This document shows, piece after piece, positions 5,605 through 35,051 of a stretch of DNA of 64,000 nucleotides. The notes beneath the pieces are model-generated. The model saw only the letters and a program-made list of their open reading frames with translations. It was not told the origin of the DNA and made no database searches. The position numbers were made by a program, and so were the translations under genes. The stretch is from Escherichia coli. Its GTDB lineage: Bacteria; Pseudomonadota; Gammaproteobacteria; Enterobacterales; Enterobacteriaceae. How positions within the stretch are numbered: the first letter of the stretch is position 1; each line of letters opens with the position of its first letter. The stretch is from the NCBI RefSeq assembly GCF_016026235.1, contig NZ_CP065613.1; one strand, given 5' to 3'.

Positions 5605-5767
5605 AAAATATTAATTTCACCTGATCCATTTCACACTTTTAAATTCAGGTCGGAATCGTCACCTTTTTTTACTCTTTTCTCGCCTTGTTGATATTCCCGT
5701 TCACGGCAGAATTAATCAGGTCATTTCAATAAAACTAAAAATTGCTCCCTATTCACGAGGAATATCT

Positions 5768-10142: not shown

Positions 10143-11117
10143 ATGACAAAATTACAACTTAAGTACCGGGAGTTAAAAATTATCTCGGTAATCGCTGCCA
10201 GTGAAAATATCAGCCATGCCGCGACTGTACTTGGCATCGCACAGGCCAACGTCAGCAAATACCTTGCTGATTTTGAATCAAAAGTGGGTTTAAAAGTCTT
10301 TGACCGAACCACCCGGCAGCTGATGCTCACACCTTTTGGTACCGCGCTGTTACCGTACATCAACGACATGCTGGACAGAAACGAGCAGCTTAATAATTTT
10401 ATTGCAGATTATAAGCATGAGAAACGTGGTCGGGTCACCATCTACGCCCCAACCGGCATAATTACCTATTTATCCAAACATGTAATCGATAAAATTAAAG
10501 ATATCGGTGATATCACCTTATCGCTAAAAACCTGCAATCTTGAGCGTAATGCCTTTTATGAAGGCGTCGAATTTCCTGATGATTGTGATGTTTTAATCAG
10601 CTATGCCCCACCAAAAGATGAATCGCTGGTTGCCAGTTTTATTACCCAATATGCCGTAACCGCTTATGCCAGCCAGCGCTATCTTGAGAAACATCCCATT
10701 AGCCGTCCTGACGAACTCGAACATCACTCCTGTATTTTGATCGACTCGATGATGATCGACGACGCGAATATCTGGCGCTTCAACGTCGCTGGGAGTAAAG
10801 AGGTGCGGGATTATCGCGTGAAGGGAAATTACGTTTGCGACAACACGCAATCGGCGCTGGAGCTGGCACGAAATCACCTGGGGATTGTGTTTGCGCCAGA
10901 CAAAAGTGTGCAGAGCGATCTGCAAGACGGCACGCTGGTGCCCTGCTTTCAGCACCCGTATGAATGGTGGCTGGATCTGGTGGCTATCTTCCGTAAACGG
11001 GAATACCAGCCCTGGCGGGTCCAGTATGTGCTGGATGAAATGCTGCGTGAAATTCGCCACCAGCTTGCTCAGTCGCAGCAACTGCGGCCTGAACAAGCGG
11101 CGGAAAGCGAAGATTAA
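10143..11117 (+). CDS. yiaU: LysR-family transcriptional regulator
   Basis: 324-aa ORF with an N-terminal LysR HTH; divergent from yiaT across an AT-rich spacer. Confidence 0.85.
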
Positions 11118-12250
11118 TGATCGAGATAAAGGTAATGCACCCAGCTGGTCATGCGTAATAACACTTTGCGCATCACCGAGACATGGCTGAAATGATCAGA
11201 GTAGACCGCCACCTGGGCGTAAATACCGTCTGGTAAAGCGCTCAAATCAGTGTGCTCATTCAGTTCAATGGTCGCGATAACGCCATCTGAACCCGGCGCT
11301 GTGTTTAACGTCTGTAAGGTGCCGGTCGACTGATAAGCTCCGCTGGGAACAGCTGGACTAATGGCTGCCAGCTTACCGCTGAACACTTTGCCTGGCAGAG
11401 CGTTAAATACCACTTCCGCATCATCGCCGGGAGCCAGGCGCAGCAAGGAGTTCTGACGGAACTGCGCCACGATTTGTCGTTTCTGATCGGGTATAAACAC
11501 CATCACCGGACGTAGCGGCAGCGACGCGGCATAGGTACCCGGACGAATCAGCACCTGGGTCACATAACCATCGCTCGGCGCACGCACTATCGTCTGCTCA
11601 AGGTTATATTTTGCTTCCGCGAGCTGCGCTTTCAGGCTGGCGATTTGAGAATGTTCACCCAGCACCAGGCTATCCAGCTGGCTCTGGATCTGTTTTTGTT
11701 CCGCCGCTGATGACTTCACGGAGGCTTCCTGCGCCAGATAATTTTGCCGCGCCACATCGATATCGCGTTCTGAAAACGGGTTTACTTTCGCCTGGCTGCC
11801 GCGTGCGTAACGCTGATACTCTTTAGCGAATTTATCCCGCGTGGCCTTTGCCTGCTGAGTATTCGCCGCCATCTCATCTAACTCTGCGCCCAACGCCCGC
11901 TGTTTATGTTCTGCGGTAACGATATCCGCCATCAGCCGATCCACCCGCGCCTGATAACGCGTCGGGTCCAGTCGAAATAGCACTTCACCTTTTTTAATCA
12001 GCGTATTTTTCTTATCCGTCACTTCAATCACCACACCAGTCACCTGTGGGACAACAGGAATAGAAATAACCGCTTTTTGCGCTTTAAAGGTATACGGATG
12101 GTTATAGTTCATTAACAGAATTAGACCGCTGACAATAAATATTCCACCCAGGGCCGCTGTGGGAATGGTCCATTTATTTACGGGAATTTTGAAGATCTTA
12201 AACATTGCCCATGCAAAAGCCACATAGGTCAAAATAATCAGTAAATCCAT
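11114..12250 (-). CDS. yiaV: HlyD-family membrane-fusion-like inner-membrane protein
   Basis: 378-aa ORF with one N-terminal transmembrane helix and a long coiled-coil region; paralog of the ORF at 20176..21312. Confidence 0.8.
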
Positions 12251-12255
12251 AAGTA

Positions 12256-12579
12256 TTACTCGGCAGAAGAGGATTTGATGTCGGCGAGCTGTTTCTCCAG
12301 CCCGGCAATGCGCTGTTGCAGTTGCATAACGGATGAATCATGGCTTTGCATTCCCCATCCCCGCTCCGGGCGGTAAAGCGTGGCCCAAATCCACAAAAAC
12401 GGCCAGATAACATGTAACGTAAAAAGACTCACCCAACCAGCAACATGAATGGCGTCGGCATGAGGATGATTACGTTTTTTAGCAATCAGGTAGGGAATAT
12501 CATGTAAAATAATAATCCCATAAAATATCACCAGAAATACAAAAATAAGCACTCCCAGCGCAAAATAGTCTAGGAACAT
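12256..12579 (-). CDS. yiaW: Small inner-membrane protein (DUF3302 family)
   Basis: Start chosen at the internal Met ([13 protein letters not shown]…) by alignment with the paralog at 21315..21677; two transmembrane helices followed by a C-terminal coiled coil. Confidence 0.7.
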
Positions 12580-12989
12580 ATTTCCCTCAAAGAATATAAA
12601 AAAGAACAATTAACGCATATTATGAAATGCCATGATGCAGTGCAATTTCCTTATTTATATAACGACATATTGTTTTTATATACTTTCTGAAGTGTGCTGC
12701 GTGGCTTTTCAACAGGTCGAGGTTTATCATATTGAAATAATGGAACTATTGACCAAGCTAATGAATAACTCCAGTAAAACATCCACAGTACAGATAAAGC
12801 GTATTAAACCTTCAATTATCTACCGTTTATTGCTGATTGGCCTCGAAACGCCACTGGTGATTTACGGCCTGGTTTGCCCGCTCACCATCGAAACGCGAGA
12901 TTAAACTCCTGGCAAAACACGCCCCAGAAACGCACTTCTGTTGGCGTAGTCTGGGTTATTGCGCACGTAGGTTTAAAACGTAAATTGTA

Positions 12990-13095
12990 ACAACGTGCGC
13001 TTTGTTTATGCCGGATGCGGCGTGTACGCCTTATCCGGCCTACGGTCAGGTCCCCGTAGGCATGATAAGACGAGTAAGCGTCGCATCAGGCAATG
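12990..13095. repeat. REP/BIME palindromic units
   Basis: GCCGGATGCGGCGTGTACGCCTTATCCGGCCTAC and an inverted partner downstream of aldB. Confidence 0.75.
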
Positions 13096-13122
13096 AATAC
13101 CCAATGCGACCAGCTTCTTATA

Positions 13123-14661
13123 TCAGAACAGCCCCAACGGTTTATCCGAGTAGCTCACCAGCAGACACTTGGTTTGCTGATAATGCTCCAGCATCATCTT
13201 ATGGGTTTCGCGTCCGATGCCCGACTGTTTGTAGCCGCCAAACGCCGCATGTGCCGGGTAAGCGTGATAACAGTTGGTCCACACGCGCCCAGCCTGAATG
13301 CCGCGCCCCATCTTATAGGCCAGATTACCGTTGCGGCTCCAGACGCCCGCGCCCAAGCCATATTGCGTATCGTTCGCCAGCTCCAGAGCTTCTTCCATCG
13401 TTTTGAAGGTGGTTACCGCCAGCACCGGGCCAAAAATCTCCTCCTGGAACACGCGCATATTGTTCTGACCAAACAGAATCGTCGGTTCGAGGTAGTAGCC
13501 GTCTTTCAGTTCACCTTCCAGCAGCTTGCGCCGCCCGCCGGTGAGCACGTCTGCGCCCTCTTTTTTACCGATATCAATGTAGTTGAGGATGGTTTCCAGT
13601 TGCCCGTGAGAAACCTGCGCGCCCATTTGCGTCACGCTGTCGAGTGGGTTACCGCTGCGAATGCTTTCGACACGGCGGATGGCGCGTTCCATAAAGCGTT
13701 CGTAGATTGACTCCTGCACTAAGGCACGACTCGGACAGGTGCAAACTTCACCCTGGTTAAAGGCAAACAGTGCAAAGCCTTCCAGCGCTTTATCGAAAAA
13801 GGCATCTTCTTCATCCATCACATCAGCAAAGAAGATATTTGGCGATTTGCCGCCCAGCTCCAGCGTCACCGGAATAATGTTTTGCGTTGCGTATTGCATA
13901 ATTTGTTGGCCCACTTCCGTTGAGCCGGTAAACGCCACTTTGGCGATGCGTTTCGAGGTCGCCAGATATTCGCCAATTTCCCCACCAGCGCCATTGACCA
14001 CGTTCACCACGCCCGGCGGCAGTAAATCACCGACGATTTCCATTAGCAGCAGTACAGAAAGCGGGGTAAGACGTGCGGGTTTCAGCACCACACAGTTGCC
14101 CGCCGCCAGCGCGGGAGCCATTTTCCAGCTCGCCATCAGCAGCGGGAAGTTCCACGGGATAATCTGCCCCACCACGCCTAACGGTTCATGGAAATGATAG
14201 GCCACGGTTTCGCTATCAACTTCACTGATCCCACCTTCCTGCGCCCGAATACACGAGGCGAAATAGCGGAAATGGTCAATCGCCAGCGGTACATCCGCAG
14301 CACTGGTTTCGCGAATGGGTTTGCCGTTATCCCAGGTTTCAGCTGTCGCTAACAGCTCGAGGTTTTGTTCCATTCGATCGGCAATCTTAAACAGAATCGC
14401 CGCGCGATCCTGCACCGAGGTGTGCGCCCATTTATCTTTCACTTTGTGCGCAGCATCCAGCGCCAGATCGATGTCTCGTTTGCCCGAAGACGCCACTTCG
14501 CACAGCAGCTGCCCGGTCACCGGCGTCAGGTTCTGGTAATACTCACCATCGGCAGGGACTACCCATTCGCCACCAATAAAGTTGTCGTAGCGGGCTTTTA
14601 ACTTGAGGGGGAAACCATACTCGCCGGGCTTAATCTGTGCTGAAGGGGGATTATTGGTCAT
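13123..14661 (-). CDS. aldB: Aldehyde dehydrogenase B
   Basis: The 558-aa ORF-track ORF was trimmed to the Met giving [19 protein letters not shown]… (512 aa), matching AldB; ALDH catalytic Cys region present. Confidence 0.9.
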
Positions 14662-14825
14662 GATCATCTCCTTGCGGTGTGAGGTATAACAAGGGTAGAC
14701 GTGACTGGCGAAATCTTCGCCAGCCGGTAACAGCTTTACGACAGCTATCACGAATTTACGGGCAAGGATTACAGAGATAGTTGAAAAAGCGGCTGACAAT
14801 TTGCCAGCCGTTGTTGGAATGATGA

Positions 14826-15977
14826 TTACATTGCGGCGCGATAAATCGCCACAATTTCTTCGTGAGTTGCCTGGGTCGGGTTAGTAAAGCCACAGGCATC
14901 TTTCAGGGCATTAGTCGCCAGAACCGCGAAATCTTCTTCTTTCACGTTCAGGTCACGCAGGCCTGCCGGGATATTCACTTTCTTCGCCAGTTCACGGATG
15001 GCATTGATGCACGCTTCTGCGCCTTCCGCGTCATTTTTGCCTGTCACGTTAACGCCCATGGCAGCAGCGCAGTCACGCAGACGCGCAGCAGCGACTTTGC
15101 TGTTGAACACCTGAACGTGCGGCAGCAGAACAGCATTACATACACCGTGTGGCAGGTTGTAGAAACCTCCCAGCTGGTGTGCCATCGCATGAACATAACC
15201 AAGAGATGCGTTGTTGAACGCCATACCAGCGAGGAACTGGGCATAAGCCATTGCTTCACGCGCTTTAGCATTGCTGCCATCTTCAACGGCTAATGGCAGG
15301 TTTTCGGCAATCATGGTCACCGCTTTCAGTGCGCAAGCGTCAGTGATCGGCGTTGCAGCGATAGAAACATACGCTTCGATAGCGTGTGTTAAGGCGTCCA
15401 TACCAGTGGCGGCGGTCAGTGACTTCGGCATACCGATCATCAGAGATGAGTCATTGACAGAAAGCAGCGGAGTCACGTGCTTATCAACAATCGCCATTTT
15501 GATGTGACGCGCTTCGTCGGTGATGATGCAGAAACGAGTCATTTCTGATGCTGTACCCGCAGTGGTATTGATGGCGATCATCGGCAGCTGCGGTTTTGCA
15601 GAGCGGTCAACGCCTTCATAATCACGGATATCACCACCATTGGCTGCCACCAGCGCAATACCTTTTGCACAGTCATGCGGAGAACCACCGCCTAAGGAAA
15701 TCACGCTATCGCAATTATTTTCTTTAAGTAATTTCAAACCTGCGGCGACGTTTTCCGTGGTTGGGTTAGGTTGGGTGCCATCATAAATAACGCTAAAAAT
15801 ATTGCGTTCTTCCAGTGCTTTTTGCACATCACCCGCCATACCTAATTTCGTTAACATATTGTCAGTGACAATTAATGTACGGGTAAATCCATAATCTGCC
15901 ATCATATTCATTGCATCAATCAATGAACCAGCGCCGATGACATTCACAGAAGGAATAAAGAACGTTGAAGCTGCCAT
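14826..15977 (-). CDS. yiaY: Iron-containing (group III) alcohol dehydrogenase
   Basis: 383-aa ORF of the Fe-ADH family (GGGSPHD motif); position matches yiaY. Confidence 0.88.
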
Positions 15978-16075
15978 AACACACTCCTGAAAGTGTAAAA
16001 AAGGGTGGGCAGCTTACTGAGGATTTTCATTCGAAAATATGATCATTATTATTGATTATCAAAATTAATCTAATA

Positions 16076-16113
16076 AAAAGCACATTGTATTCATTAAACA
16101 ATGTGCTTTTTTT
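16076..16113. terminator. Bidirectional rho-independent terminator downstream of selB
   Basis: Hairpin CACATTGT-(loop)-ACAATGTG flanked by an A-run on one side and a T-run on the other, inside an AT-rich spacer. Confidence 0.6.
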
Positions 16114-16166
16114 AAAATCATAAGAAATTTGTATTAATTTATTTTAAAAATTAATTAATCATTTCC

Positions 16167-18011
16167 TTATTTTTCCGGAAATAATAATGCGTCGCGCAAT
16201 AAATGATCATTTCCGCGACGCCGCGTAAAGCCAATGCGGTCAAAATATTCCAGGATTTGAATCGCCAGTTTTCGCCCAACCCCTAAGCGATCGCGGAAAT
16301 CCGCCGCGCAGGTTGAACCACATTCCTGATCGAGATCGCGGATCATATTGGCAAACTCGACAATCCGATCGTTACGGTAATAACGATCTTTGACGATCGC
16401 GGTAATTATCCCCTGTTGGGCCGCCTGGCGTAGCGTCAGGCGCATTGCCTGCTCGTCGGTTCCCGTCTCTTTTGCCAGGTCACGCACCCACCACGGTTCG
16501 TCACCAAACAGCGGCTCTGCTTTTTGCCAGATGGCCTGCTGCTCTTCGCTGAAGCCCGCTTTGTGATCCGGCAGATGCAGCCAACCGTGATGACTGAGGA
16601 TGTCGCCGCTTTCGCGCATCTTTTCAATCAGCAACAGTACCAGCGCTTCATCTTCCATTGGCAACGCCATACGTCGCAGACGTTCGCGCCCAGGACCAGG
16701 TTCATCACGATGTTGCTCATGATAAGTCGCTAATGTGTCGAGAATTTTCCGCTGCCAGCGGGCGGCAACCGGCGCATTCAACAAGCTATAACCAGCCTGA
16801 ATATAGCCAGGCTGTTGCAGCAGTTCGCGCATCCCTTCGCCGTTGAGCTGGCGCGCCCAGGCGAAATCCGCAAGGTTAACCGCTCCGCGTTCCAGATGAA
16901 CAGATAACGCATCGGCATCGCTCTGCGCCCGTGCAAGAGACGCCAGCCATTGCAGATATTCCGGCTTACGTTTACCGCGACGCGGCGGGTTAAGCATCAC
17001 CACACGCGCCCCCGCCAGCGTATTGCGGGCCGAGATATCGCGCAACACTAAGCGATCGTTATCCGCCAGCCACAGCGGCGTGTCGAACACCAGCTCGGCA
17101 AGGTTATCTTCCAGCAACGAAACGCGTCCCGTAACGTGGCTGGCGGCGTGGTGAATATGCAGCGGCTGCCACTGGGTCAGCGGCGTATGGGTTTGAAGCT
17201 CGACAATAACCCGCGTGAACGGCTCTGGCGGCACATCGGCAAGCAGCCAGTCGCCACGGTTAATCTGCTCTTTTTCCGCATCCCCCGCGATGTTAAGCGC
17301 GATACGCTGGCCGGCATGAGCGGTTTCTGTTGGCTGGTTTTGTGCATGCAGCGCACGTACACGCATCGGTTTATTTACACCAGTCAGCCATAGTGAATCG
17401 CCTACCTTCACTTCCCCGCTTAACGCCGTACCGGTGACCACCAGCCCGGCACCTTTTACGGTAAATGCGCGGTCGATCGCGAGGCGGAAACTATGTTGGC
17501 TGGCGTGTTCACGTTCTGGTAACTGAAGTAGATGCTCGCGCAGGGCATCAATTCCCCGACCTTCGGTTGCTGCGGTGATAAACAGTTTTGCCTCAGCAAA
17601 ACCGTATTCCCGCAGAACCTCCTTTACCTGGCGTTCAACCTCATCAACACGCGCTTCGTCCACGCGATCAGCTTTGGTCAGCGCCACTGTCAGCATCGGG
17701 TTACCGGTCAGCTGCAAAATCGCCAGATGCTCACGGGTCTGTGCCATCACGCCGTCATCGCACGCCACCACCAACAGCGCGTGATCGATACCACCAACGC
17801 CCGCCAGCATGTTGGAAAGAAACTTTTCATGACCGGGTACGTCGATAAAACCAGGCACGCGACCATCCGGCTGCGGCCAGTAGGCATAGCCGAGATCGAT
17901 GGTCATGCCGCGCTTTTTTTCTTCCGGCAGACGGTCAGCATTTACGCCAGTAATCGCCTGCAATAAGGTTGTTTTGCCGTGGTCAACGTGTCCGGCAGTC
18001 GCAATAATCAT
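16167..18011 (-). CDS. selB: Selenocysteine-specific translation elongation factor SelB
   Basis: 614-aa ORF with an N-terminal GTPase G1 motif ([10 protein letters not shown]); overlaps the selA stop, indicating an operon. Confidence 0.92.
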
Positions 18012-19399
18012 TTCAACAACATCTCCAAAAACCGTTGCTCATCTTCAAGGCAGCGTAAATCCAGCCACAATCGTCCGTCATAAATACGACCAATCACCGG
18101 CACTGGCAATTCACGCCAGCGGGCGGCTAATGACTCAAGGTGGCTACCGCGTCCATCATGGGGTGTAAACGTTAATGCCGCGCTCGGCAGGCGATCAACC
18201 GGCAGCGAACCACTGCCAATCTGCGAAAGACATGGCATAACCTGTACCGCAAACTCCGCGCCGTAATGTGCGGCAAGGGGAGCCTGTAAATGTTGTGCCT
18301 GGATTTGAATGACCTCTGCGCTGCGGGTAAGCAGGCGCAGGGTCGGTAATTTTTCACTCAGAGCTTCAGGGTGTAAATAAAGACGCAACGTGGCTTCCAG
18401 CGCCGCGAGGGTCATTTTATCCGCGCGTAATGCACGCTTCAGCGGGTGGCTTTGCAGGCGGGCGATCATCTCTTTTTTACCAACGATAATCCCTGCCTGC
18501 GGCCCGCCTAACAACTTGTCGCCGGAGAAGCTCACCAGACTGACGCCCGCCGCAATCAACTCCTGCGGCATTGGCTCTTTCGGCAAACCGTACTGGCTAA
18601 GATCGACCAGCGAGCCACTGCCTAAATCAGTCACTACGGGAACATCCAGCTCTTTGCCGAGCGCCACCAGTTCAGCTTCGTCTATCGCTTTGGTGAACCC
18701 CTGAATGCTGTAGTTACTGGTATGTACTTTCATCAACAGTGCGGTATTTTCATTCACCGCCTGACGATAATCATTCGCGTGCGTGCGGTTGGTGGTCCCT
18801 ACTTCGTGTAGTGTGCAGCCTGCCTGACGCATAACATCGGGAATACGAAACGCGCCGCCAATCTCCACCAATTCGCCGCGAGAAACCACCACCTCTTTCC
18901 CGCTGGCAGTGGCCGCCAACATCAATAACACCGCCGCCGCATTGTTATTAACGATACAGGCATCTTCCGCCCCCGTAATACGGCACAGCAACTGTGCCAG
19001 CGCACGATCGCGATGTCCGCGTCCGGCGTCGTCCAGATCGTACTCGAGGGTCACTGGCGAACGCATAGCCTGCGCAACGGCTTCCACCGCGGCTTCCGCC
19101 TGTAAAGCTCGCCCAAGGTTGGTATGCAGCACGGTTCCCGTCAGGTTGATCACCGGACGCAGCGCACTCTGCGCCTCTTTCGTCAACCGGGCATCGACTT
19201 CTTGCGCCCAGTTTTCACACCACGCAGGCAGCGTCTGGCTGCCACGAATCACTTCTCGCGCTTCGTCGAGCATCTGACGCAACAATTCCACCACGCGGGT
19301 GTGACCATAAGTATCACGCAAAGAAAGGAAGGAGCTATCGCGCAATAAGCGATCAATAGCCGGAAGTTGACTATAGAGGGAACGCGTTTCGGTTGTCAT
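18008..19399 (-). CDS. selA: L-seryl-tRNA(Sec) selenium transferase (selenocysteine synthase) SelA
   Basis: 463-aa ORF; PLP enzyme; length and context match SelA. Confidence 0.92.
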
Positions 19400-19496
19400 A
19401 GGAAACCTGGCTGATCAAGGCCCTCTCACACGGAGAAGGGCGTTTAACATAACCACGGATTGTAACGTGAGATGGGTCAGGAGGACATATCGCGCA

Positions 19497-20105
19497 TCAA
19501 GCCTTTGGCGGTTCGGTGCGAGCAAAACTTTCGCGGCTAAACAGGTTTTCGACCAGTTTGACTAAGTGTGGGCGGTCGACACACCAACCTGGCGCAACGC
19601 GGCGGAAATTGAGATATCCGACGGCACAGGCAATAGCGATAGTCGCCAGATTGACCGTATCGGTTTTGAGTGTGCCATCGACCAGATATCCTTCCAGCAC
19701 ATCCAGACTGCGGTTGATTTTCTCCCGCTGGCGTAACAATTCATCTTCAGACTGCTGCGCCGCTGGACGCGCCTGTTCACGCACCGATACCAGCCCAGCA
19801 TCCATAATGCCATCCGCCAGTGCCTCAATTTTGCGCACCCGCAACGACTCCAGCGGATCGCGCGGCAACATCGCCGGAGCGACATTCATTAATTCAATAT
19901 ATTCAGCGATGATCGGCGAATCAAACCAGCATTCGCCCTCTTCGGTCACCAGCACCGGCACTTTTCCTAACGGGTTAAATTGCGCCACGCCGTTGTCCGC
20001 GTTATAGGGCAGTTCATTAATAAATTCGAAAGTTATGCCCTTTTCTAACAACAGAATAGAAAGTTTGCGTACAAACGGGCTGGTGTAGCTACCGACGAGT
20101 TTCAT
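19497..20105 (-). CDS. yibF: Glutathione S-transferase family protein
   Basis: 202-aa ORF with a GST N-terminal thioredoxin-like fold; position matches yibF. Confidence 0.85.
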
Positions 20106-20175
20106 GCCGAGTCCTTTGTGCGAGGAAAAATATCAGTATGGCTCAGGCTCACGCAAAACACAGGTGATATAAGTC

Positions 20176-21312
20176 TCAATGATCCAAATAAAGATAATGC
20201 ATCCAGCTGGTCATTCTTAGCAGCACTTTTCGCATCACCGAAACATGGCTGAAATGGTCGGAGTAAACTGCCACCTGGGCGTAAATGCCGTCGGGTAAGG
20301 CATCGATATCATCGTTAGGGTCCAGTTCAATGGTTCCCAGCACACCGTCCGTGCCGGGCACGACCGTTAATGATTGCAATACCCCCTGCGCCTGATAAGA
20401 ACCGCCTGGCACGACAGGTAAAATACTGGTCAGTTTGCCGTGGAACACCTGCCCAGGTAGCGCGTTAAACACCACTTCCGCATCATCGCCAGGTTTCAGA
20501 CGTAACAGCGAGTTTTGCCGAAATTGGGCGACAATTTGCCGTTTTTGCTCGGGGATGAAGACCATCACCGGACGCAGCGGCAAGGCAGCGGCGTATGTGC
20601 CTGGGCGGATCAGTACCTGAGTGACGTAGCCATTGCTCGGTGCGCGAATGACGGTCTGTTCAAGGTTATATTTTGCTTCTGTAAGTTGCGCTCTTAAGCT
20701 CACAATCTGCGATTGCTCGCCGTTAACCATACTGTCGAGCTGGCTCTGGATCTGCGCCTGCTCCGCCACCGAGCCTTTCACCAGCGCATCCTGCGCGAGG
20801 AAATTTTGCCGCGCATCGTCGATGTCACGTTCCGAGAACGGATTCACCGCCGCCTGGCTGCCTTTCAGATAACGTTGATAATTTTTAAACAGACGGTCGC
20901 GCTCCGCTGAAACCTGGGTGGTGTTGGCCTGCGCTTCAGTGAGCTGCGCGCGCAGCGTCTTTATATTATGCGTCGCCGTCATCAGGTCAGCCTGAAGTCT
21001 GTCAACTCGCGCCTGGTAACGAACCGGGTCGAGCTTAAAAAGCACCTCGCCCTTTTGAATAAGCTGATTATTCTTGTCAGTGACTTCAGTAACAATTCCC
21101 GTCACCTGTGGCGTGATGGGGATCGCTATCACAGCCTTTTGCGCGGTAAAAGTGTAAGGGTGGTTGTAGTTCATCAACAAAATCAAACCACTCACCAGAA
21201 ACACGCCTCCCAGCGCCGCCGTCGCCAGCGTCCACTGATTCACCGGAATACGAAAGATTTTAAAGACCGCCCACGCCAGCGCCACATAAGTTAAAACAAT
21301 CAATAGATCCAT
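20176..21312 (-). CDS. yibH: HlyD-family membrane-fusion-like inner-membrane protein (yiaV paralog)
   Basis: 378-aa ORF with high protein and nucleotide similarity to 11114..12250 (same length, same start MDLLI(V/I)LTYVA…). Confidence 0.8.
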
Positions 21313-21314
21313 AA

Positions 21315-21677
21315 TTAGATCTCCGGGAACGTGGAATAGTCAGTCTTTTTCTCGGCGGCGAGTTGGTGCTCCAGCCGGGAAATTCGGTCAGAAAGTGCGG
21401 CGATTTCCGGGTCAGTCGCTTTCTCCTGCGACGCAACATGTGACTGCATACCCCAGCCACGCTCCGGTTGATAGAGCGTCGCCCAGATCCACAGAAACGG
21501 CCAGATAACATGCAGAGTAAACAGGCTCACCCAGCCCGCCGTATGAATAGCGTCGGCATGGGGATGGTTGCGCTTTTTGGCAATCAGATAAGGGATGTCA
21601 TGTATCGCGATGATTCCATAAAAAATCACCAGAAAGACGAAGATCAGCACTCCCAACGCGAAATAGTTTAGAAACAT
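21315..21677 (-). CDS. yibI: Small inner-membrane protein (DUF3302; yiaW paralog)
   Basis: 120-aa ORF; the first roughly 75 residues are near-identical to the yiaW product. Confidence 0.75.
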
Positions 21678-21893
21678 ATTTGCCTCGGATTCACGTTTAT
21701 CAGTGTTGTTTTTTGGCTGGCAGCCAGAAGGGAGTCAGGCTGATATTTTGACAATAATCCGGGTTCGCGATTCTCGCCATAACACCAAAGAATAATTTTT
21801 AGAGGTGATGAGTTGCTTAGTTACATAACGATTGTATGACGAAGGCATAACATGCTGTAGATCACATCAGGTGAACGCCGTAAGAAAATATCT

Positions 21894-22070
21894 TGTGATT
21901 CAGATCACAAAGATTCAACAAACCATCAAAACAAAAATGTGACATTAGTCACATTTAAATGCCATTTTTAGCGAAAATCGCCGCCTTGTGGCTTTTTTAC
22001 ACAAGCGTTTTGTGATGAACATCACGCCAATTACCTCTCTACCCCCTATATTTATGTGATTGATATCACA
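21894..22070 (+). promoter_or_regulatory. mtlA promoter region with four consensus-like CRP sites (21894-21909, 21938-21953, 22011-22026, 22055-22070)
   Basis: TGTGA-N6-TCACA read directly: TGTGATTCAGATCACA, TGTGACATTAGTCACA, TGTGATGAACATCACG, TGTGATTGATATCACA. The mtl promoter is known to carry multiple CRP sites. Confidence 0.7.
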
Positions 22071-22213
22071 CAAAAGGCCGTCGACTGGACAGTTAACCGA
22101 TTCAGTGCCAGATTTCGCAGTATCTACAAGGTCCGGCTACCTCTGCCGCCACATTAACAAAAAACCTCGGGCTTCCAGCCTGCGCGACAGCAAACATAAG
22201 AAGGGGTGTTTTT

Positions 22214-24121
22214 ATGTCATCCGATATTAAGATCAAAGTGCAAAGCTTTGGTCGTTTCCTCAGCAACATGGTGATGCCAAATATCGGCGCGTTTATCGCG
22301 TGGGGTATCATCACCGCGTTATTTATTCCAACAGGGTGGTTACCGAACGAGACGCTGGCGAAGCTGGTCGGGCCGATGATCACTTATCTCCTGCCGCTGC
22401 TGATCGGTTATACCGGTGGTAAGCTGGTAGGCGGCGAACGTGGCGGCGTAGTCGGTGCCATCACCACCATGGGCGTTATCGTCGGCGCAGACATGCCGAT
22501 GTTCCTCGGTTCTATGATTGCAGGTCCGCTGGGCGGCTGGTGCATTAAGCACTTCGACCGCTGGGTAGACGGTAAGATCAAATCCGGTTTTGAGATGCTG
22601 GTGAACAACTTCTCCGCAGGCATCATCGGGATGATCCTCGCCATTCTGGCATTTCTCGGCATTGGCCCGATTGTTGAAGCCCTGTCCAAAATGCTGGCTG
22701 CGGGCGTTAACTTCATGGTTGTCCATGACATGCTGCCGCTGGCGTCTATCTTTGTTGAACCGGCGAAAATCCTGTTCCTCAACAACGCCATTAACCACGG
22801 TATCTTCTCGCCGCTGGGTATTCAGCAGTCCCATGAACTGGGTAAATCCATATTCTTCCTGATTGAAGCTAACCCAGGTCCGGGTATGGGGGTGCTGCTG
22901 GCGTACATGTTCTTTGGTCGTGGTAGCGCTAAACAGTCTGCGGGCGGTGCGGCAATTATCCACTTCCTGGGTGGTATCCACGAAATTTACTTCCCGTATG
23001 TGTTGATGAATCCGCGTCTGATCCTGGCCGTTATCCTCGGCGGTATGACTGGCGTGTTCACGCTGACTATCCTGGGCGGTGGTCTGGTTTCTCCGGCATC
23101 TCCGGGTTCTATCCTTGCTGTACTGGCGATGACACCAAAAGGTGCTTATTTCGCTAACATCGCGGGTGTGTGTGCGGCGATGGCTGTCTCCTTTGTTGTC
23201 TCTGCTATTTTGCTGAAAACCAGCAAAGTGAAAGAAGAAGATGATATTGAAGCAGCAACTCGTCGTATGCAGGACATGAAAGCTGAGTCTAAAGGTGCAT
23301 CTCCGCTGTCTGCGGGCGATGTGACTAACGACCTGAGCCACGTACGTAAAATCATCGTTGCCTGTGACGCCGGTATGGGTTCAAGTGCGATGGGCGCAGG
23401 CGTGCTGCGTAAGAAAATTCAGGATGCAGGTCTGTCGCAGATTTCTGTTACTAACAGCGCGATCAACAACCTGCCGCCAGATGTGGACCTCGTCATCACT
23501 CACCGTGACCTGACCGAACGCGCTATGCGCCAGGTTCCGCAGGCACAGCATATTTCGCTGACCAACTTCCTCGACAGCGGCCTGTACACCAGCCTGACCG
23601 AACGTCTGGTTGCTGCCCAGCGCCATACTGAAAACGAAGTGAAAGTGAAAGTGAAAGACAGCTTTGACGATTCCAGTGCTAACCTGTTCAAACTGGGCGC
23701 GGAGAACATCTTCCTCGGTCGCAAAGCTGCCACCAAAGAAGAAGCGATTCGTTTTGCTGGCGAGCAGTTGGTGAAAGGCGGTTACGTTGAGCCGGAATAC
23801 GTTCAGGCGATGCTGGATCGTGAAAAACTGACCCCGACTTATCTGGGTGAGTCTATCGCGGTGCCACACGGTACGGTTGAAGCGAAAGATCGCGTACTGA
23901 AAACGGGCGTGGTGTTCTGCCAGTACCCGGAAGGCGTGCGCTTCGGTGAAGAAGAAGATGACATTGCCCGTCTGGTGATTGGTATTGCTGCCCGTAACAA
24001 CGAGCACATTCAGGTTATCACCAGCCTGACCAATGCACTGGATGATGAGTCCGTCATCGAGCGTCTGGCACACACCACCAGCGTGGATGAAGTGCTGGAA
24101 CTGCTGGCAGCTCGTAAGTAA
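22214..24121 (+). CDS. mtlA: PTS mannitol-specific EIICBA component
   Basis: 635-aa ORF starting [27 protein letters not shown]…, matching the MtlA N-terminus. Confidence 0.93.
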
Positions 24122-24149
24122 TCCAATCCCACCCTCTCCACATGGAGAA

Positions 24150-24265
<116 letters not shown>

Positions 24266-24350
24266 CCCCTCTCCTCACGGAGAGGGTTTGGGTGAGGGAA
24301 AAGCCTCACCCCAGCCCTCTCGGGTAAAAACATTGATGAAGGTTAATACT

Positions 24351-25499
24351 ATGAAAGCATTACATTTTGGCGCAGGTAATATCGGTCGTGGCTTTATCGG
24401 TAAACTGCTGGCAGACGCGGGTATACAACTGACGTTTGCCGATGTCAATCAGGTGGTACTTGATGCCCTGAATGCCCGTCATAGCTATCAGGTTCATGTG
24501 GTCGGTGAAACCGAGCAGGTAGATACCGTTTCTGGCGTCAATGCTGTCAGCAGCATTGGTGATGATGTCGTTGATCTCATTGCTCAGGTTGATTTAGTCA
24601 CTACCGCCGTTGGCCCGGTAGTGCTGGAACGTATTGCTCCGGCTATCGCCAAAGGGCTGGTGAAACGTAAAGAACAAGGTAATGAATCTCCGCTGAACAT
24701 CATCGCTTGTGAAAACATGGTCCGCGGCACCACGCAACTGAAAGGCCATGTGATGAACGCCCTGCCGGAAGACGCCAAAGCGTGGGTAGAAGAACACGTT
24801 GGCTTTGTCGATTCCGCCGTTGACCGCATCGTACCGCCTTCGGCTTCTGCAACTAACGATCCGCTGGAAGTGACGGTAGAAACCTTCAGCGAATGGATTG
24901 TCGATAAAACTCAGTTCAAAGGCGCACTGCCGAACATCCCAGGCATGGAGTTAACCGACAACCTGATGGCATTTGTCGAACGTAAACTCTTCACCCTGAA
25001 CACGGGTCATGCTATAACCGCGTACCTCGGAAAACTGGCCGGTCATCAGACCATTCGTGACGCGATTCTCGACGAGAAAATCCGCGCGGTGGTAAAAGGT
25101 GCGATGGAAGAAAGTGGTGCAGTATTGATCAAGCGCTACGGCTTTGACGCTGACAAGCATGCGGCGTACATCCAGAAAATCCTCGGCCGTTTTGAGAACC
25201 CGTATCTGAAAGATGATGTAGAGCGCGTAGGCCGTCAGCCGCTGCGTAAACTGAGCGCAGGCGACCGTCTGATCAAGCCACTGCTCGGTACGCTGGAATA
25301 CGGCCTCCCGTACAAAAATCTGATTCAGGGAATTGCCGCTGCAATGCACTTCCGCAGTGAAGATGATCCGCAGGCTCAGGAACTGGCAGCACTGATCGCC
25401 GACAAAGGTCCGCAGGCGGCGCTGGCACAGATTTCCGGGCTTGATGCCAACAGCGAGGTTGTATCTGAGGCGGTAACCGCTTATAAAGCAATGCAATAA
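24351..25499 (+). CDS. mtlD: Mannitol-1-phosphate 5-dehydrogenase
   Basis: The ORF-track ORF 24033..25499 reads through the REP region; the true start at ATG 24351 ([17 protein letters not shown], Rossmann motif) gives 382 aa. Confidence 0.9.
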
Positions 25500-26086
25500 T
25501 GGTGGACCAGGCGCAGGACACCCTGCGCCCGAATAACAGATTGTCAGATATGCAGGCAACAATGGAACAAACCCAGGCCTTTGAAAACCGTGTGCTTGAG
25601 CGTCTGAATGCTGGCAAAACCGTGCGAAGCTTTCTGATCACCGCCGTCGAGCTCCTGACCGAGGCGGTAAATCTTCTGGTGCTTCAGGTATTCCGCAAAG
25701 ACGATTACGCGGTGAAGTATGCTGTAGAACCGTTACTCGACGGCGATGGTCCGCTGGGCGATCTTTCTGTGCGTTTAAAACTCATTTACGGGTTGGGCGT
25801 CATTAACCGCCAGGAATACGAAGATGCGGAGCTGCTGATGGCATTGCGTGAAGAACTAAATCACGACGGCAACGAGTACGCCTTTACCGACGACGAGATC
25901 CTTGGACCCTTTGGTGAACTGCACTGCGTGGCGGCGTTACCACCGCCGCCACAGTTTGAACCAGCAGACTCCAGTTTGTATGCAATGCAAATTCAGCGCT
26001 ATCAACAGGCTGTGCGATCAACAATGGTCCTTTCACTGACAGAGCTGATTTCCAAAATCAGCTTAAAAAAAGCCTTTCAAAAGTAA
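25499..26086 (+). CDS. mtlR: Mannitol operon repressor
   Basis: 195-aa ORF whose start overlaps the mtlD stop; position matches mtlR. Confidence 0.85.
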   Translation: MVDQAQDTLRPNNRLSDMQATMEQTQAFENRVLERLNAGKTVRSFLITAVELLTEAVNLLVLQVFRKDDYAVKYAVEPLLDGDGPLGDLSVRLKLIYGLGVINRQEYEDAELLMALREELNHDGNEYAFTDDEILGPFGELHCVAALPPPPQFEPADSSLYAMQIQRYQQAVRSTMVLSLTELISKISLKKAFQK

Positions 26087-26097
26087 GCAACGTCTGC

Positions 26098-26307
26098 TTA
26101 CTGCCCCTCTACCTGCTTCGGCCGATAAAGCCGACGATAATACTCCAGACGTTGTAGATATAACGGCACGCTTTCATCGGGTATTCCGGACGGAATCGCG
26201 TTACGGGGAGGAAGTTTTTTCAGATACTCCCGGAACGCCTGGCTTGATGCCATGAAATCTACGGCTTTATCGATAAGAAGCGGAACGTTTTCACCTAATT
26301 TGCCCAT
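26098..26307 (-). CDS. yibT: Small uncharacterised protein
   Basis: 69-aa ORF convergent with mtlR; identified by position and size only. Confidence 0.55.
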
Positions 26308-26591
26308 GATGATATCTCCGTATTACCCCGCGCCGGGAATGCGCGGCCGCCAATTTTAGTTTAGGTTCCCGGTAAAGATGACATTAAGGAAAACGTGCTG
26401 AATCCTCAATAATCATCCGCTTCTGTTTATTATCTTTTTTCTATAGATTTCTTAATTAATCAATAAATTGCGTAGTTTTTAAGCATATTAATGATTACGT
26501 TGCGGAACTATTGCAATGTCATCAGTTGTGAACAAAGCACCTGGTCGCGCATACTAGGGGCTATAAATTTATCTTTATCAGAAGCCATCAC

Positions 26592-26954
26592 ATGAAAGAA
26601 GTCGAAAAAAACGAAATCAAACGTCTCAGCGATCGTCTGGACGCCATCCGCCACCAGCAGGCCGATCTGTCGCTGGTTGAAGCCGCAGACAAATATGCCG
26701 AGCTGGAAAAAGAGAAAGCCACGCTGGAAGCAGAAATTGCCCGCCTGCGTGAAGTTCACAGCCAGAAACTGAGTAAAGAAGCACAGAAGCTGATGAAGAT
26801 GCCGTTTCAGCGCGCAATTACCAAAAAAGAGCAGGCTGATATGGGCAAACTGAAGAAAAGTGTTCGCGGACTGGTGGTTGTGCACCCAATGACCGCGCTG
26901 GGCCGCGAAATGGGCCTGGAAGAGATGACTGGATTCTCTAAGACTGCGTTTTAA
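26592..26954 (+). CDS. yibL: Conserved protein of unknown function (DUF2810-like), coiled-coil
   Basis: 120-aa ORF with a charged coiled-coil region; position matches yibL. Confidence 0.7.
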
Positions 26955-27018
26955 GCCCCTCAGACGATTGGTACGATCGTATCAACCCGCATCTGGCTTG
27001 CGTTAGCTGGTCAATGCG

Positions 27019-27028
27019 GGGACTCCCC
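27019..27028. repeat. Target-site duplication, left copy (GGGACTCCCC)
   Basis: Directly repeated at 28323..28332, immediately outside the IS terminal inverted repeats; a 9-bp TSD is expected for IS10-group elements, and the exact boundary is ambiguous by 1 bp. Confidence 0.7.
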
Positions 27029-28322
27029 CTGAGGGATCCCCAGAAAATTTAGTAAACCATTATCATATTGGTATACCGTTGCTGTAGAACTTTCAGCCCT
27101 GCGTCAAGTGACAGTGTGTTTAGTATGAGTGGAGAATGTCGAATCACATTCTCCGCCAGTTTTAATAACGAGATGACTCGCCTGTGCTTCACTGTATTTG
27201 CCTGATATTTATGATGTATCCCTTTGTTTTCCAGGCTGAAACCGCTTAACCACATAATGATACTGGCTAATGTTGCGATCAGACTCAATACCGTGACCCG
27301 CCCGGATGAATGACTGGCACCAAACCGTAGTCCAAATCCCCAGCGAGGATTTTTTTCATCCCTGAAATTTTGCTCAATTTGCATTCTACGGCTGTATAAT
27401 TTCATTACCTGTTTTGGCGAGAACTCAGTACTGTTTGTGAAAATAAACCATGGTGATTTCCCGGCAGTACGAGCTTTAGCCGTCACCGATGGTCTGGTTG
27501 CTCTTTCCTTCGAGCGTTTAAATCTACGACCTTTAGGCTTACTTTTATAAAGATAAAAATGCCCTTCATGTTGTGCATTTTTATCTCGACCCAGCAGGCC
27601 TTCACCTAAATAAATTGCTGTCGTTGATGCTTTTGTGCCTGAGTCCGACACCTTTTCCCAGCCATTACCAACATTGTAATAATGATTGCCCAGTACCCGG
27701 CAAATATAGGTCCAGCCACGGGAGCGGAGCTGTTGGAACCATCGCCCCTGAAAACCGGCATCTGTAATAACAATGACATCAGTCCCGGGGGAAAAGCACT
27801 CAGCAAGCGATTCCAGAAAACGCTCATGTACATCTGCATTCGCTGTCTGTGATGATGGAACGACACAACTCATCAACGGTAAAGAACGCCCGTCACATGC
27901 CAGGCTTGCCCGCAAAAGCTGAAAACGAGAGGCATGATAAGCACTCCAGTCAATGAGTATCACAACACGAGACATTCCCCGCGTAATCTTTTGGGTAATT
28001 CGCTGAAAAATGGTGGAAACCTCATTTTGCAAATGTCGATTCCCCAACAGTCGATCCACCCGCTTTATTTTGTTTTTAACTGATGCCGTACCGGTTAAAT
28101 GACGCCCGATACTGGTAAGTGTGAGGGAAGCGCCATTTATTACAGCATTAGTTGCGTCAATCAGTGATTTTTGACGGTAAAGATGCAAAGGGGCCAGTAT
28201 GTTGTTAAGGAAATTTTGGCATAATGAACGTGCAGGCATAGTGGTGATCTCCTTGAAATTGTTAGCACAATCAATTAGATCACATCTCACTATGCCTGTC
28301 TTGTTTTCTGGGGATTCCTCAG
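27029..28322 (-). mobile_element. IS10-like insertion sequence (IS4 family), apparently intact
   Basis: About 1.29 kb bounded by imperfect terminal inverted repeats (left CTGAGGGATCCCCAGAAAA…, right …TTTTCTGGGGATTCCTCAG) resembling IS10 ends (CTGATGAATCCCC), with a single transposase ORF and flanking direct repeats. Confidence 0.85.
27049..28239 (-). CDS. IS4-family (IS10-group) DDE transposase
   Basis: Protein aligns from MPARSLCQNF… with the IS10 transposase as I recall it (shared LTLT…GR…NKIKR(V/I)DRLLGNRHL, YSRRMQIEQNFRDEK, HKYQANTVKHRRVIS blocks). The start was trimmed to the Met preceded by a GGAG RBS. Confidence 0.85.
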   Translation of the reverse strand: MPARSLCQNFLNNILAPLHLYRQKSLIDATNAVINGASLTLTSIGRHLTGTASVKNKIKRVDRLLGNRHLQNEVSTIFQRITQKITRGMSRVVILIDWSAYHASRFQLLRASLACDGRSLPLMSCVVPSSQTANADVHERFLESLAECFSPGTDVIVITDAGFQGRWFQQLRSRGWTYICRVLGNHYYNVGNGWEKVSDSGTKASTTAIYLGEGLLGRDKNAQHEGHFYLYKSKPKGRRFKRSKERATRPSVTAKARTAGKSPWFIFTNSTEFSPKQVMKLYSRRMQIEQNFRDEKNPRWGFGLRFGASHSSGRVTVLSLIATLASIIMWLSGFSLENKGIHHKYQANTVKHRRVISLLKLAENVIRHSPLILNTLSLDAGLKVLQQRYTNMIMVY

Positions 28323-28332
28323 GGGACTCCCC
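28323..28332. repeat. Target-site duplication, right copy (GGGACTCCCC)
   Basis: See the left copy at 27019..27028. Confidence 0.7.
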
Positions 28333-28801
28333 TGTCTGCTCGCCTAATTACTGAACAATCCACTCCCTCTACATCAATTTACCGCTGGTTGATATTCTGA
28401 AAATGTATTTTCACCGAAATAGCAACCTATAAACAATAAAAATATATAGAAGATATCATTTGTTAATTAACAAGCATTTACGTCTCTTTTTTTCGGATTT
28501 AATTGTGAAATTTTAATCATCATATTCATAAAATCAATTATCCGTAAAAATTTTTCCAGATATGGTTTCTTCCATATTTGACATTTATTAATAATCATCA
28601 TTAGAATCCACGAAAAATAATATATTCATACAAACACAGACATATTTTGAAACGAATGATACATTTTTATGATGAATGCTTAAAACAATATTTAATCGAC
28701 ACCCATCACTGTCATTAATGTAAAGCAACATAGATCACCAATAATACAATGGACAACTCTACCGGCATTGATCGCTGGTCGGAGGCAATAAGGATTTTTA
28801 C

Positions 28802-29485
28802 ATGAACTTGAAGAAGATTTTTTTCAGTGCTGTCACTGTTTCAGTTCTCTGCACATTAACGGGATGTGACTACATTGAAGAAGGCAAGCCAGAAAGTAGT
28901 TTACTGAAACAACAAGAAGAACATAACAATAAAATTGAGCTAATTGAAAAACAACAAGCACAGCTAAAGAGTCAACTGGAAACTATTCAAAAACAACAAA
29001 CTGGCATAATAACCAGTACAAAGACTTTAACTCACGTAATTAAATCCGTTAAAGAACAACAAAACACTTTTATTTTTACCGAGTTTAATCCGGCAAAAAC
29101 GAAGTATTTCATCCTGAACAATGGTTCGGTGGCTTTAGCGGGCCGAGTGTTATCTATTGACGCAACAGAGAATGGCAGTGTTATTCATATTTCACTGGTC
29201 AACTTATTAAGTATACCAATCTCAAACATTGGTTTTAATGCGACATGGGGTGGTGAAAAACCTGTCGATGCCAAAGAGTTTGCCCGGTGGCAACAATTAC
29301 TTTTCAACACATCAATGAAATCCACATTGAAATTATTACCAGGTCAATGGCAAGACATTAATTTGACACTGAAGGGTGTATCGCCGAATAACCTGGGATA
29401 TCTGAAGTTAGCCATCAATATGGAGAATATTCAGTTTGACAACCTTCCCTCTGCTGAAAATCGGCAGAAAAGAAGCAAAAAATAA
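28802..29485 (+). CDS. SadB-like inner-membrane lipoprotein (putative trimeric autotransporter biogenesis helper)
   Basis: 227-aa ORF with a lipoprotein signal peptide and lipobox (…VLCTLTGC), followed by a Q/E/K-rich coiled coil. It sits immediately upstream of the adhesin gene, as sadB does with sadA in Salmonella. The gene is AT-rich. Confidence 0.6.
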   Translation: MNLKKIFFSAVTVSVLCTLTGCDYIEEGKPESSLLKQQEEHNNKIELIEKQQAQLKSQLETIQKQQTGIITSTKTLTHVIKSVKEQQNTFIFTEFNPAKTKYFILNNGSVALAGRVLSIDATENGSVIHISLVNLLSIPISNIGFNATWGGEKPVDAKEFARWQQLLFNTSMKSTLKLLPGQWQDINLTLKGVSPNNLGYLKLAINMENIQFDNLPSAENRQKRSKK

Positions 29486-29528
29486 ATGCAGCTTCTGCGC
29501 TTATATCAAGGAATAGAGAACATCATTA

Positions 29529-32500
29529 ATGAACAAAATATTTAAAGTTATCTGGAACCCTGCGACAGGGAATTATACTGTTACCAGCGAAACGGCAAAA
29601 AGCCGTGGTAAGAAATCTGGTCGCAGTAAGCTGTTAATTTCTGCCCTGGTCGCGGGTGGAATGTTTTCGTCGTTTGGGGCATTGGCGAATGCCGGGAATG
29701 ACAACGGTCAGGGTGTTGATTACGGTAGTGGATCAGCTGGCGACGGCTGGGTTGCTATAGGCAAAGGGGCGAAAGCAAATACTTTTATGAACACCAGTGG
29801 TTCCAGTACTGCTGTGGGTTATGAAGCTATAGCTGAAGGCCAATATAGCTCTGCCATCGGTTCAAAAACCCATGCGATTGGTGGTGCATCAATGGCGTTT
29901 GGGGTTAGTGCAATATCAGAAGGCGATAGAAGTATAGCACTGGGTGCCTCTTCGTATTCATTGGGCCAATACTCAATGGCCCTCGGCCGTTATTCAAAAG
30001 CATTGGGTAAATTGTCTATTGCTATGGGGGACTCTTCCAAAGCGGAAGGAGCAAACGCCATTGCGCTGGGAAATGCCACTAAAGCTACTGAGATTATGAG
30101 TATTGCTCTTGGCAACACCGCCAATGCGTCAAAAGCGTATTCAATGGCGCTGGGAGCAAGTAGCGTCGCATCTGAAGAAAACGCGATTGCCCTGGGGCGT
30201 AGCAGTGCAGCTAATGGTACTGACAGCCTCGCATTAGGCAGACTATCCGTCGCCAGCGCAGCAAACGCCATTACGATAGGTGCTGAGAGCAAAGCCGCTG
30301 AAAATGCGACGGCCGTTGGTACCAAAGCGGAGGCCAATGGACTTAATAGTATCGCGTTGGGCTCTGGGGGTATTGCAGATGCCGATAACACGATTGCTCT
30401 GGGCAATCAAAGCCTGGCAGTAGCTGCTGGTGCAATTGCCATCGGTCAGGGGAATAAAGCTGACGGCGCAAATGCTATCGCGCTGGGTAATGGTAGTGTT
30501 ACAGGTGGCGCAAATGCTATTGCTCTTGGACAAGGTAGTTATGCCGGTTTAGAAAATGGCATTGCAATTGGTGGTCAAGCCAGTGCTCAAGGGACAAATT
30601 CCGTTGCTCTGGGTGCGGGTTCTGTAGCGACTGAAGATAATTCCGTCTCTGTGGGTAACACAACAGATCAGCGAAAAATTGTCAATATGGCAGCAGGTGA
30701 TATCAGCACTAGCAGTACTGATGCCATAAATGGATCACAGCTTTATGCTATCAGTAAGTCAGTAGCGGACCGTCTTGGTGGGGGGGCTACCGTCAATGCG
30801 CAAGGTGTCGTTACTGCCCCGAATTACAGACTGAAAAATGGTATTTATGGCAATGTTGGCGATGCTTTAGCGGATCTAAACAATAACACGATACAATGGG
30901 ACTCCGTTAAAAAGGGATATAGTGCGGCACATGGTACAGATGCCACCAGCACCATCACCAACGTTAAAGCCGGCACTATTTCTGCTACCAGTACGGATGC
31001 GGTTAACGGTTCCCAACTGAAAGCTACCAATGACGATGTCGAAGCCAACACCGCCAATATCGCTACTAATACCAGCAACATTGCCACGAATACGGCAAGT
31101 ATTGCCACCAACACCACCAATATCACCAACCTGACGAATTCCGTTGGTGACCTTAAGGATGATGCCCTGCTGTGGAATGATGCTAAAAATGCATTCAGTG
31201 CAGCTCACGACCAGGATACCACCAGCAAAATCACCAACGTTAAAGATGGCGACCTGACGGCTGGCAGCACCGATGCCGTTAATGGCTCTCAGCTGAAAAC
31301 CACCAACGATGCCGTGGCGACGAATACCACCAATATCGCCACTAACACTTCCAATATTGCCACTAACACTTCCAACATCTCTACCCTGACTGAGACGGTG
31401 ACTAATCTTGGTGAGGATGCGCTGAAATGGGATAAGGACAGTGGTGTCTTCACGGCAGCACACGGCACCGAGGCCACCAGCAAAATCACCAACGTTAAAG
31501 ATGCCGACCTGACGGCTGACAGCACCGATGCCGTTAACGGCTCTCAGCTGAAAACCACCAACGATGCTGTGGCGACGAATACCACCAATATCGCCAATAA
31601 CACCTCCAATATTGCCACTAACACCACCAACATCTCTAACCTGACTGAGACGGTGACTAACCTTGGTGAAGATGCGCTGAAATGGGATAAGGACAATGGT
31701 GTATTCACGGCAGCTCATGGCAACAACGCCACCAGCAAAATCACCAACGTTAAAGATGGCGACCTGACGGCTGGCAGCACCGATGCCGTTAACGGCTCTC
31801 AGCTGAAGACCACCAACGATGCCGTGGCGACGAATACCACCAATATTGCCACTAACACCACCAACATCTCTACCCTGACTGAGACGGTGACTAATCTTGG
31901 TGAGGATGCGCTGAAATGGGATAAGGACAATGGTGTATTCACGGCAGCTCATGGCAACAACACCGCCAGCAAAATCACCAATATCCTGGACGGCACAGTC
32001 ACTGCAACCAGTTCCGATGCCATTAACGGCAGCCAGCTTTATGACTTAAGCAGCAATATCGCCAGCTACTTCGGCGGCAACGCTTCTGTGAATACTGACG
32101 GTGTGTTTACCGGTCCAACCTACAAAATCGGTGAAACAAATTATTATAACGTCGGCGATGCACTGGCTGCGATTAACTCCTCATTTAGCACGTCTCTCGG
32201 CGATGCCCTGCTTTGGGACGCTTCCGTAGATAAATTTAGTGCCAAACACGGTACTAATGGTGACGCAAGCGTGATCACTGATGTCGCAAACGGGGATGTT
32301 TCAAGCACAAGCTCTGATGCTGTGAACGGCTCGCAACTCTATACCACCAATAAGTACGTCGTAGATGCGCTGGGTGGTGGTGCCGAAGTCAATGCTGACG
32401 GCAGCATCAGTGCGCCGACTTACACTATCGCAAACGCAGATTACGATAATGTCGGTGATGCCCTGAATGCTATCGATACCACTCTTGATGACGCTCTGCT

Positions 32501-34625: not shown

Positions 34626-34654
34626 TGATCCATTAAGTTAGTGTGACTAAGGGC

Positions 34655-34760
34655 AAACGCCAAATTGCCTGATGCGCTACGCTTATCAGGCCTACAGGGT
34701 GATTCTGCACATTCCTATAGGCCGGGTAAGGTGTTCACGCCGCATCTGGCAAGATAAGGC
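34655..34760. repeat. REP/BIME palindromic units
   Basis: TTGCCTGATGCGCTACGCTTATCAGGCCTACAGG … TAGGCCGGGTAAGGTGTTCACGCCGCATCTGGC downstream of the adhesin gene. Confidence 0.8.
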
Positions 34761-34779
34761 GCTCCGGGTCAACAATCTA

Positions 34780-34812
34780 AGGGCAATTCTCTGATGAGGA
34801 TTGCCCTTTTCT
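34780..34812 (+). terminator. Rho-independent terminator downstream of the adhesin gene
   Basis: Hairpin AGGGCAAT-(loop)-ATTGCCCT followed by TTTTCTTT. Confidence 0.6.
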
Positions 34813-35051
34813 TTACCAGACATCTCCCCCCACAAGAATTGGCCCTACCAATTCTTCGCTTATCTGACCTCTGGTTCACAATTCCCCAATTAAAACTCAC
34901 ATCAATGTTGCCAATACATAACATTTAGTTAACCATTCATTGTCATTATCCCTACACAACACAATTGGCAGTGCCACTTTTACACAACGTGTGACAAGTA
35001 GATGAGCAACAGACTCATTACACGATGTGCGTGGACTCCAGGAGACCTGCA

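Follow-up and report, generated by a model that had tools for sequence, protein, structure and literature searches.

Rhs elements with C-terminal tip displacement have a toxin/immunity function. For the RhsA locus of Escherichia coli, Feulner and colleagues (J Bacteriol 172:446) reportedly described in 1990 that rhsA spans 8,249 bp in K-12, whereas a Rhs-free strain has 32 bp of unrelated sequence in its place. The unoccupied allele of this locus is reportedly the ‘Rhs0’ of Hill’s laboratory. The polymorphism itself is already known. Jackson et al. 2009 (PMC2935791) list the yibF/yibH position as Rhs locus 10 of 11 and as variably present among strains. In their inference, locus 10 was born by duplication of the locus at position 5 and arose after the split from the pathogenic (B2-like) group without the clade I expansion.

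The window analyzed here is a whole stretch of 64 kb of E. coli DNA, in which the region of interest reads selAB-yibF-yibHI-mtlADR, with the start of mtlA at 22214. The genes yibI, yibH, yibF, selA, and selB all lie on the minus strand. The names yibF, yibH, and yibI are given to the three ORFs in all matching RefSeq records, and the YibF ORF is a full-length match to the NCBIfam equivalog for YibF-type glutathione S-transferases (NF007682, E=7e-123). The original prediction placed a gap of about 70 bp between the stop codons of yibF and yibH. Its coordinates are exact, but with yibH and yibF both on the minus strand, it is the stop of yibH (20176) and the start of yibF (20105) that border the gap. 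The features of the gap and of the genes on either side are as follows.

18008..19399, minus strand: selA, on the yibF side of the gap, with selB beyond
19497..20105, minus strand: yibF, 202 aa, glutathione S-transferase homologue, start codon toward the gap (from the ORF list)
20106..20142, minus strand: 37 bp directly upstream of the yibF ATG, common to empty and RhsA-bearing genomes
20143..20174: filler of 32 bp, TCAGGCTCACGCAAAACACAGGTGATATAAGT, present in the unoccupied allele only (from breakpoint mapping)
20175: right breakpoint, where homology with RhsA-bearing genomes restarts 1 bp outside the yibH stop codon
20176..21312, minus strand: yibH, 378 aa, HlyD/EmrA-type membrane-fusion/adaptor protein, stop codon at 20176..20178
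21315..21677, minus strand: yibI, 120 aa, DUF3302 small membrane protein, first gene of the yibI-yibH pair

The original prediction placed the RhsA element and its associated ORFs between yibF and yibH in K-12, and the annotation of the K-12 derivative C600 shows this to be right. In C600, the interval holds rhsA (4134 bp), yibA, a Rhs core fragment, yibG, a second Rhs fragment, and a frameshifted Imm57 pseudogene. K-12 therefore does not share the uninterrupted yibF-yibH junction of the window, where just 70 bp separate the two genes and no Rhs element occupies the RhsA position. In a pairwise alignment, homology to C600 ends at window position 20142 (position 5751 of the C600 sequence, L001) and restarts at 20175 (L001 14001), leaving 32 bp between the breakpoints in the window versus 8249 bp in K-12. 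The ‘precise junction’ of the original prediction thus holds in that the breakpoints can be placed to ~1 bp, but there are two such points and not one, separated by 32 bp (20143..20174) that have no K-12 counterpart. The left boundary is fixed only to within 1 bp, because the base after 20142 is a C in two Escherichia outgroup genomes, the same as in K-12. Between the same two breakpoints, O157:H7 carries 6495 bp, and its element differs from that of K-12 by one internal module of ~1.3 kb (the tip and yibA). The core of the K-12 element has a GC content of 56-65% and most of its tip region 26-44%, against 52% in the flanks.

Residual Rhs core or tip sequence, which had been proposed as a check, was searched for across the whole 64 kb. 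Searches with the 8249-bp K-12 element (blastn) and with RhsA (tblastn) returned chance matches of 16-31 bp only, and the filler has no significant match to the interior of the K-12 element. As far as these sequences go, the strain would appear simply to lack the RhsA toxin/immunity locus.

The window has the features of the unoccupied allele: yibF and yibH-yibI flanks in the selAB...mtlADR context, no Rhs, a 32-bp replacement, and recurrence in natural isolates. Its likeness to the Rhs0 allele of the RhsA locus extends to the flanking genes (yibF and yibH), the breakpoints, and the sizes, the 8249 and 32 bp measured here being equal to the figures reportedly given in 1990. Nothing of substance sets it apart, and the window represents one more strain with the empty allele. 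The comparison with Rhs polymorphic toxin elements, the subject of Jackson et al. 2009 and Poole et al. 2011 (PMC3150448), is different in kind. The occupied allele has their GC-rich core, AT-rich tips, and orphan tip/immunity fragments, whereas the window has none of their features and marks the site only.

We next consider how common each state is. A contiguous match to 19400..21800 in one place is found in 1523 of the 5426 complete E. coli genomes, and 1522 of the 5426 carry the filler between both flanks, as scored with a 130-bp probe for which 80% coverage is unreachable without the 32-bp filler. The K-12-type left junction is present in 3751/5426 genomes and the right junction in 3723/5426. 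Among spread samples of the records listed, the matches of genomes without K-12-type junctions mostly break at query position 100/101. This shared break in the listed samples resolves the locus into two main alleles with a single breakpoint pair, of which roughly 28% of genomes have the empty and 69% the occupied form. The remaining ~3% are rearranged and have neither standard junction, one example being an IS3 insertion. Over the 2.4 kb around the junction (19400..21800), the window is 100% identical to strain FDAARGOS_943, and its filler differs from those of the other sampled E. coli empty alleles by 0-2 substitutions. The empty RhsA site seen here is an ordinary, common variant of a polymorphism that is already known.

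A third state of the yibF-yibH locus, another of the ~3% with neither standard junction, was observed in E. coli QL57EC (L059 9098..10604), in which an IS1-bounded deletion extends from the yibF 5′ end through yibH, yibI, and mtlADR to yibT and runs to yibL.

The ancestral state was approached through a YibF scan with one genome per species, which returned 55 loci. A contiguous yibI-yibH-yibF-selA order with a yibH-yibF gap of 60-95 bp is found in E. whittamii, Escherichia sp. E1V33, and two divergent Escherichia genomes labelled E. coli, and also in Citrobacter amalonaticus, Kluyvera cryocrescens, Lelliottia, Huaxiibacter, Pluralibacter, and further Enterobacteriaceae. In Kosakonia, Buttiauxella, and others, mtlA adjoins yibF with no yibIH between them. 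B2-type E. coli and two Escherichia outgroup genomes retain the filler with 0-5 substitutions; it is recognizable in Escherichia sp. E1V33 and SCPM-O-B-8794 (4-5 substitutions) and in E. whittamii too. Because the filler is kept in Escherichia outgroups and the gene order is found in other genera as well, the empty state is, on this comparative evidence, the ancestral arrangement in Enterobacteriaceae and not an excision scar. The description of the locus as an ‘empty Rhs insertion site’ is thus apt in that the RhsA position has no Rhs, but no loss is implied, since both the filler and the gene order are present in outgroups. An ancestral empty state agrees with Jackson et al. 2009 (PMC2935791).

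One genome from outside E. coli proper, Escherichia sp. MOD1-EC7003 (L007 1..2973), has a K-12-type left junction, with 195 bp at 93% identity to the left end of the element. The occupied allele thus extends, strictly speaking, beyond E. coli. No rhsA start follows this junction; in its place are orphan ORFs of AT-rich composition and a fragment of ISAs1/H-rpt, on a contig that stops 2.9 kb upstream of yibF. Within this short contig, a search for a variant of the element found ISAs1/H-rpt matches only. The locus resembles a degraded element, or a different one, at the shared breakpoint. A single origin after the B2 split may therefore underestimate the age of the insertion or its mobility between species. 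In E. albertii NBRC 107761 (L008 89..838), the place of yibH before yibF is taken by a 230-aa ORF of the same strand. There, the 26 bp upstream of the CATACT block are nearer to the left end of the K-12 element than to the filler, in a weak match (63 bp, 87%) that consists mostly of the shared block.

Our preferred reading, to which we assign a probability of roughly 85%, is that the window carries the ancestral unoccupied RhsA-locus allele, and that the occupied allele found elsewhere derives from one illegitimate replacement followed by spread and tip remodelling. In the ancestor of most non-B2 E. coli, a single illegitimate (non-homologous, non-transpositional) event would have swapped the central 31-32 bp of the yibH-yibF spacer for a multi-kilobase Rhs element comprising rhsA (the polymorphic toxin gene), an immunity gene, and orphan tips, with transcription directed away from yibF. 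The occupied allele would then have been passed on by descent and carried further by homologous recombination of its flanks, and the interior of the element would have been remodelled by C-terminal tip displacement to give the 8249 bp of K-12 and the 6495 bp of O157:H7. We infer a single origin of the occupied allele from the shared breakpoints and not from a phylogeny.

The ends of the element were compared in an effort to characterize the insertion mechanism, which was probably non-homologous. In the K-12 junction regions, the longest word shared as a direct or inverted repeat is 10 bp and lies away from the boundaries, compared with a mean of 7.7 and a maximum of 13 in shuffled sequences. 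Direct repeats at the junction, another feature that the original prediction had proposed to look for, are accordingly absent beyond chance, as are a target duplication and terminal repeats, and the empty site likewise has no internal repeats beyond chance. The annotation of the K-12 element has no integrase, transposase, or tRNA at either end and lists Rhs, HEAT, Sel1, and Imm57 genes only. The RhsA site resembles the empty att sites of integrase- or transposase-borne islands in its presence/absence pattern with fixed boundaries across thousands of genomes. It differs from them in having no target duplication, terminal repeats, tRNA, or integrase, and in that 32 bp of host sequence are replaced and not duplicated. 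That the site is the scar or vacant target of a transposable or integrative element was rejected on the same grounds, there being no target-site duplication, att repeat, terminal inverted repeats, or integrase/transposase.

Two candidate sources for the left end of the element were also rejected. A shared TCCAAATAAA at a similar offset hinted that the K-12 element might begin with ~60 bp of a diverged copy of the yibH 3′ end plus spacer, but this alignment has z=1.4 and was equalled in 37 of 300 shuffles. Derivation of the K-12 left end from the yiaV 3′ region scored z=0.4.

Ancestral gene order is no proof that this particular lineage never carried the element. It could once have had RhsA until homologous recombination with the DNA of a Rhs-free strain restored the empty allele together with its filler, a secondary loss by allelic replacement that we consider unlikely but worth weighing. 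The selA-yibF flank is 98.7-99.7% identical to K-12 and O157:H7 versus 97.5-98.9% to three other sampled empty-allele E. coli (the identical FDAARGOS_943 excluded), while the yibH flank is ~98% identical to all compared genomes, about equally; together, the two flanks hint at mosaicism around the junction. Over 24 kb (12000..36000), moreover, no complete RefSeq E. coli genome exceeds 97.4% identity (94% coverage). The flank identities nonetheless say little, because only a handful of substitutions make up the differences and the conservation of yibF is unusually strong (100% amino-acid identity even in E. whittamii). The empty allele is also common (28%), making vertical retention the simpler reading. 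As a separate observation, identity of at most 97.4% over 12000..36000, yet 100% to FDAARGOS_943 over 19400..21800, makes the region look mosaic or its source lineage poorly represented.

Precise excision or deletion of a Rhs element is a different proposal. In the original prediction, the junction coincided with the 3′ end of one of two paralogous modules, which could have served as a recombination substrate. The second module lies at the following position.

11114..12609, minus strand: yiaW-yiaV, a DUF3302 plus HlyD-adaptor pair paralogous to yibI-yibH (20176..21677, minus strand); names from matching records

Both pairs lie on one strand, separated by 9 kb. Their nucleotide sequences are 69% identical over 1.5 kb, the longest exact match being 20 bp, and their proteins have amino-acid identities of 77% (YiaV/YibH) and 75% (YiaW/YibI); the duplication is old. 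In favor of excision, the right breakpoint does fall 1 bp from the yibH stop codon, where the yiaV/yibH paralogy ends. This part of the claim stands, but the apparent coincidence reflects only the position of the element, which begins 1 bp beyond the codon at which the paralogy stops. The modules themselves make a poor recombination substrate at 69% identity and with exact matches of at most 20 bp. They flank yibF-selAB-yiaY-aldB, one on each side, and neither is part of the element, so that a crossover between them would delete aldB-yiaY-selBA-yibF, all of which are present. Excision through other flanking repeats fares no better, as the ends of the element have no direct repeats beyond chance. 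More fundamentally, deletion of the element cannot regenerate the filler, because the occupied allele is without those 32 bp, which outgroups have kept; a deletion therefore cannot yield the empty allele. The same gene arrangement is found in other genera without Rhs. We regard excision as already refuted and give it only a very slight chance. An assembly or chance artefact, in which the adjacency of yibF and yibH would be unreal, is less probable still, given that the same junction occurs in 1522 independent complete genomes, one of them identical over 2.4 kb.

Retention of the ancestral allele thus remains our preferred reading, and it has a possible consequence for yibF. The 37 bp at 20106..20142 are identical in K-12, O157:H7, and the empty alleles and contain an AAGGA ribosome-binding site and a CATACT box. 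The box stands 31 nt before the yibF ATG, and the left boundary of the element is 2 bp upstream of it. Most yibH-yibF loci of Citrobacter, Kluyvera, Lelliottia, and Huaxiibacter retain a CCATACT-type block. The CATACT box is a candidate -10 element of a yibF promoter. If it is one, the alleles differ throughout the sequence upstream of it. A consensus scan of 20106..20175 called no promoter or terminator; since neither consensus was found in the gap, a transcript of the empty allele may run from yibIH into yibF. RNA of the gap is predicted to fold no better than shuffled sequences (z=+0.6) and has no Rfam match at E≤1.

We tentatively raise a further proposition, which we think doubtful. Either (a) yibF would be expressed differently between the alleles, the RhsA insertion having taken out the sequence next to the upstream side of the CATACT box and cut yibF off from yibI-yibH, or (b) a non-B2-looking lineage would have regained the empty allele by recombination. 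If (a) were true, empty strains would have read-through from yibIH, whereas K-12-like strains would have a hybrid promoter whose upstream part comes from the element. If (b) were true, the window would offer a natural case of clean Rhs loss.

Other variable positions were seen in the window. Between yibL and lldP lie a DUF3251-type gene (28802..29485) and a gene for a 1698-aa YadA-like trimeric autotransporter (29529..34625, plus strand), which is of EhaG/UpaG type according to the annotation of matching records and a syntenic ehaG in O157:H7. The yibL-lldP position is empty in K-12, which adds a second presence/absence polymorphism to the window. In O157:H7 FRIK944 (L058 2765..4060), a Fic-family gene lies between aldB and yiaY; it is missing in K-12 and in the window, where aldB (13123..14799) adjoins yiaY (14826..15977).

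The polymorphism at this locus is decades old, and to it the outgroup comparison adds clear support for an ancestral empty state. The breakpoints 20142|20143 and 20174|20175, together with the filler, provide a handy marker for PCR or in silico typing. The absence of RhsA takes away one repeat of those that underlie the classic RhsA-RhsB duplications. It also leaves the strain without a toxin/immunity locus that is found in K-12, O157:H7, and ~69% of complete E. coli genomes, which could affect contact-dependent competition.
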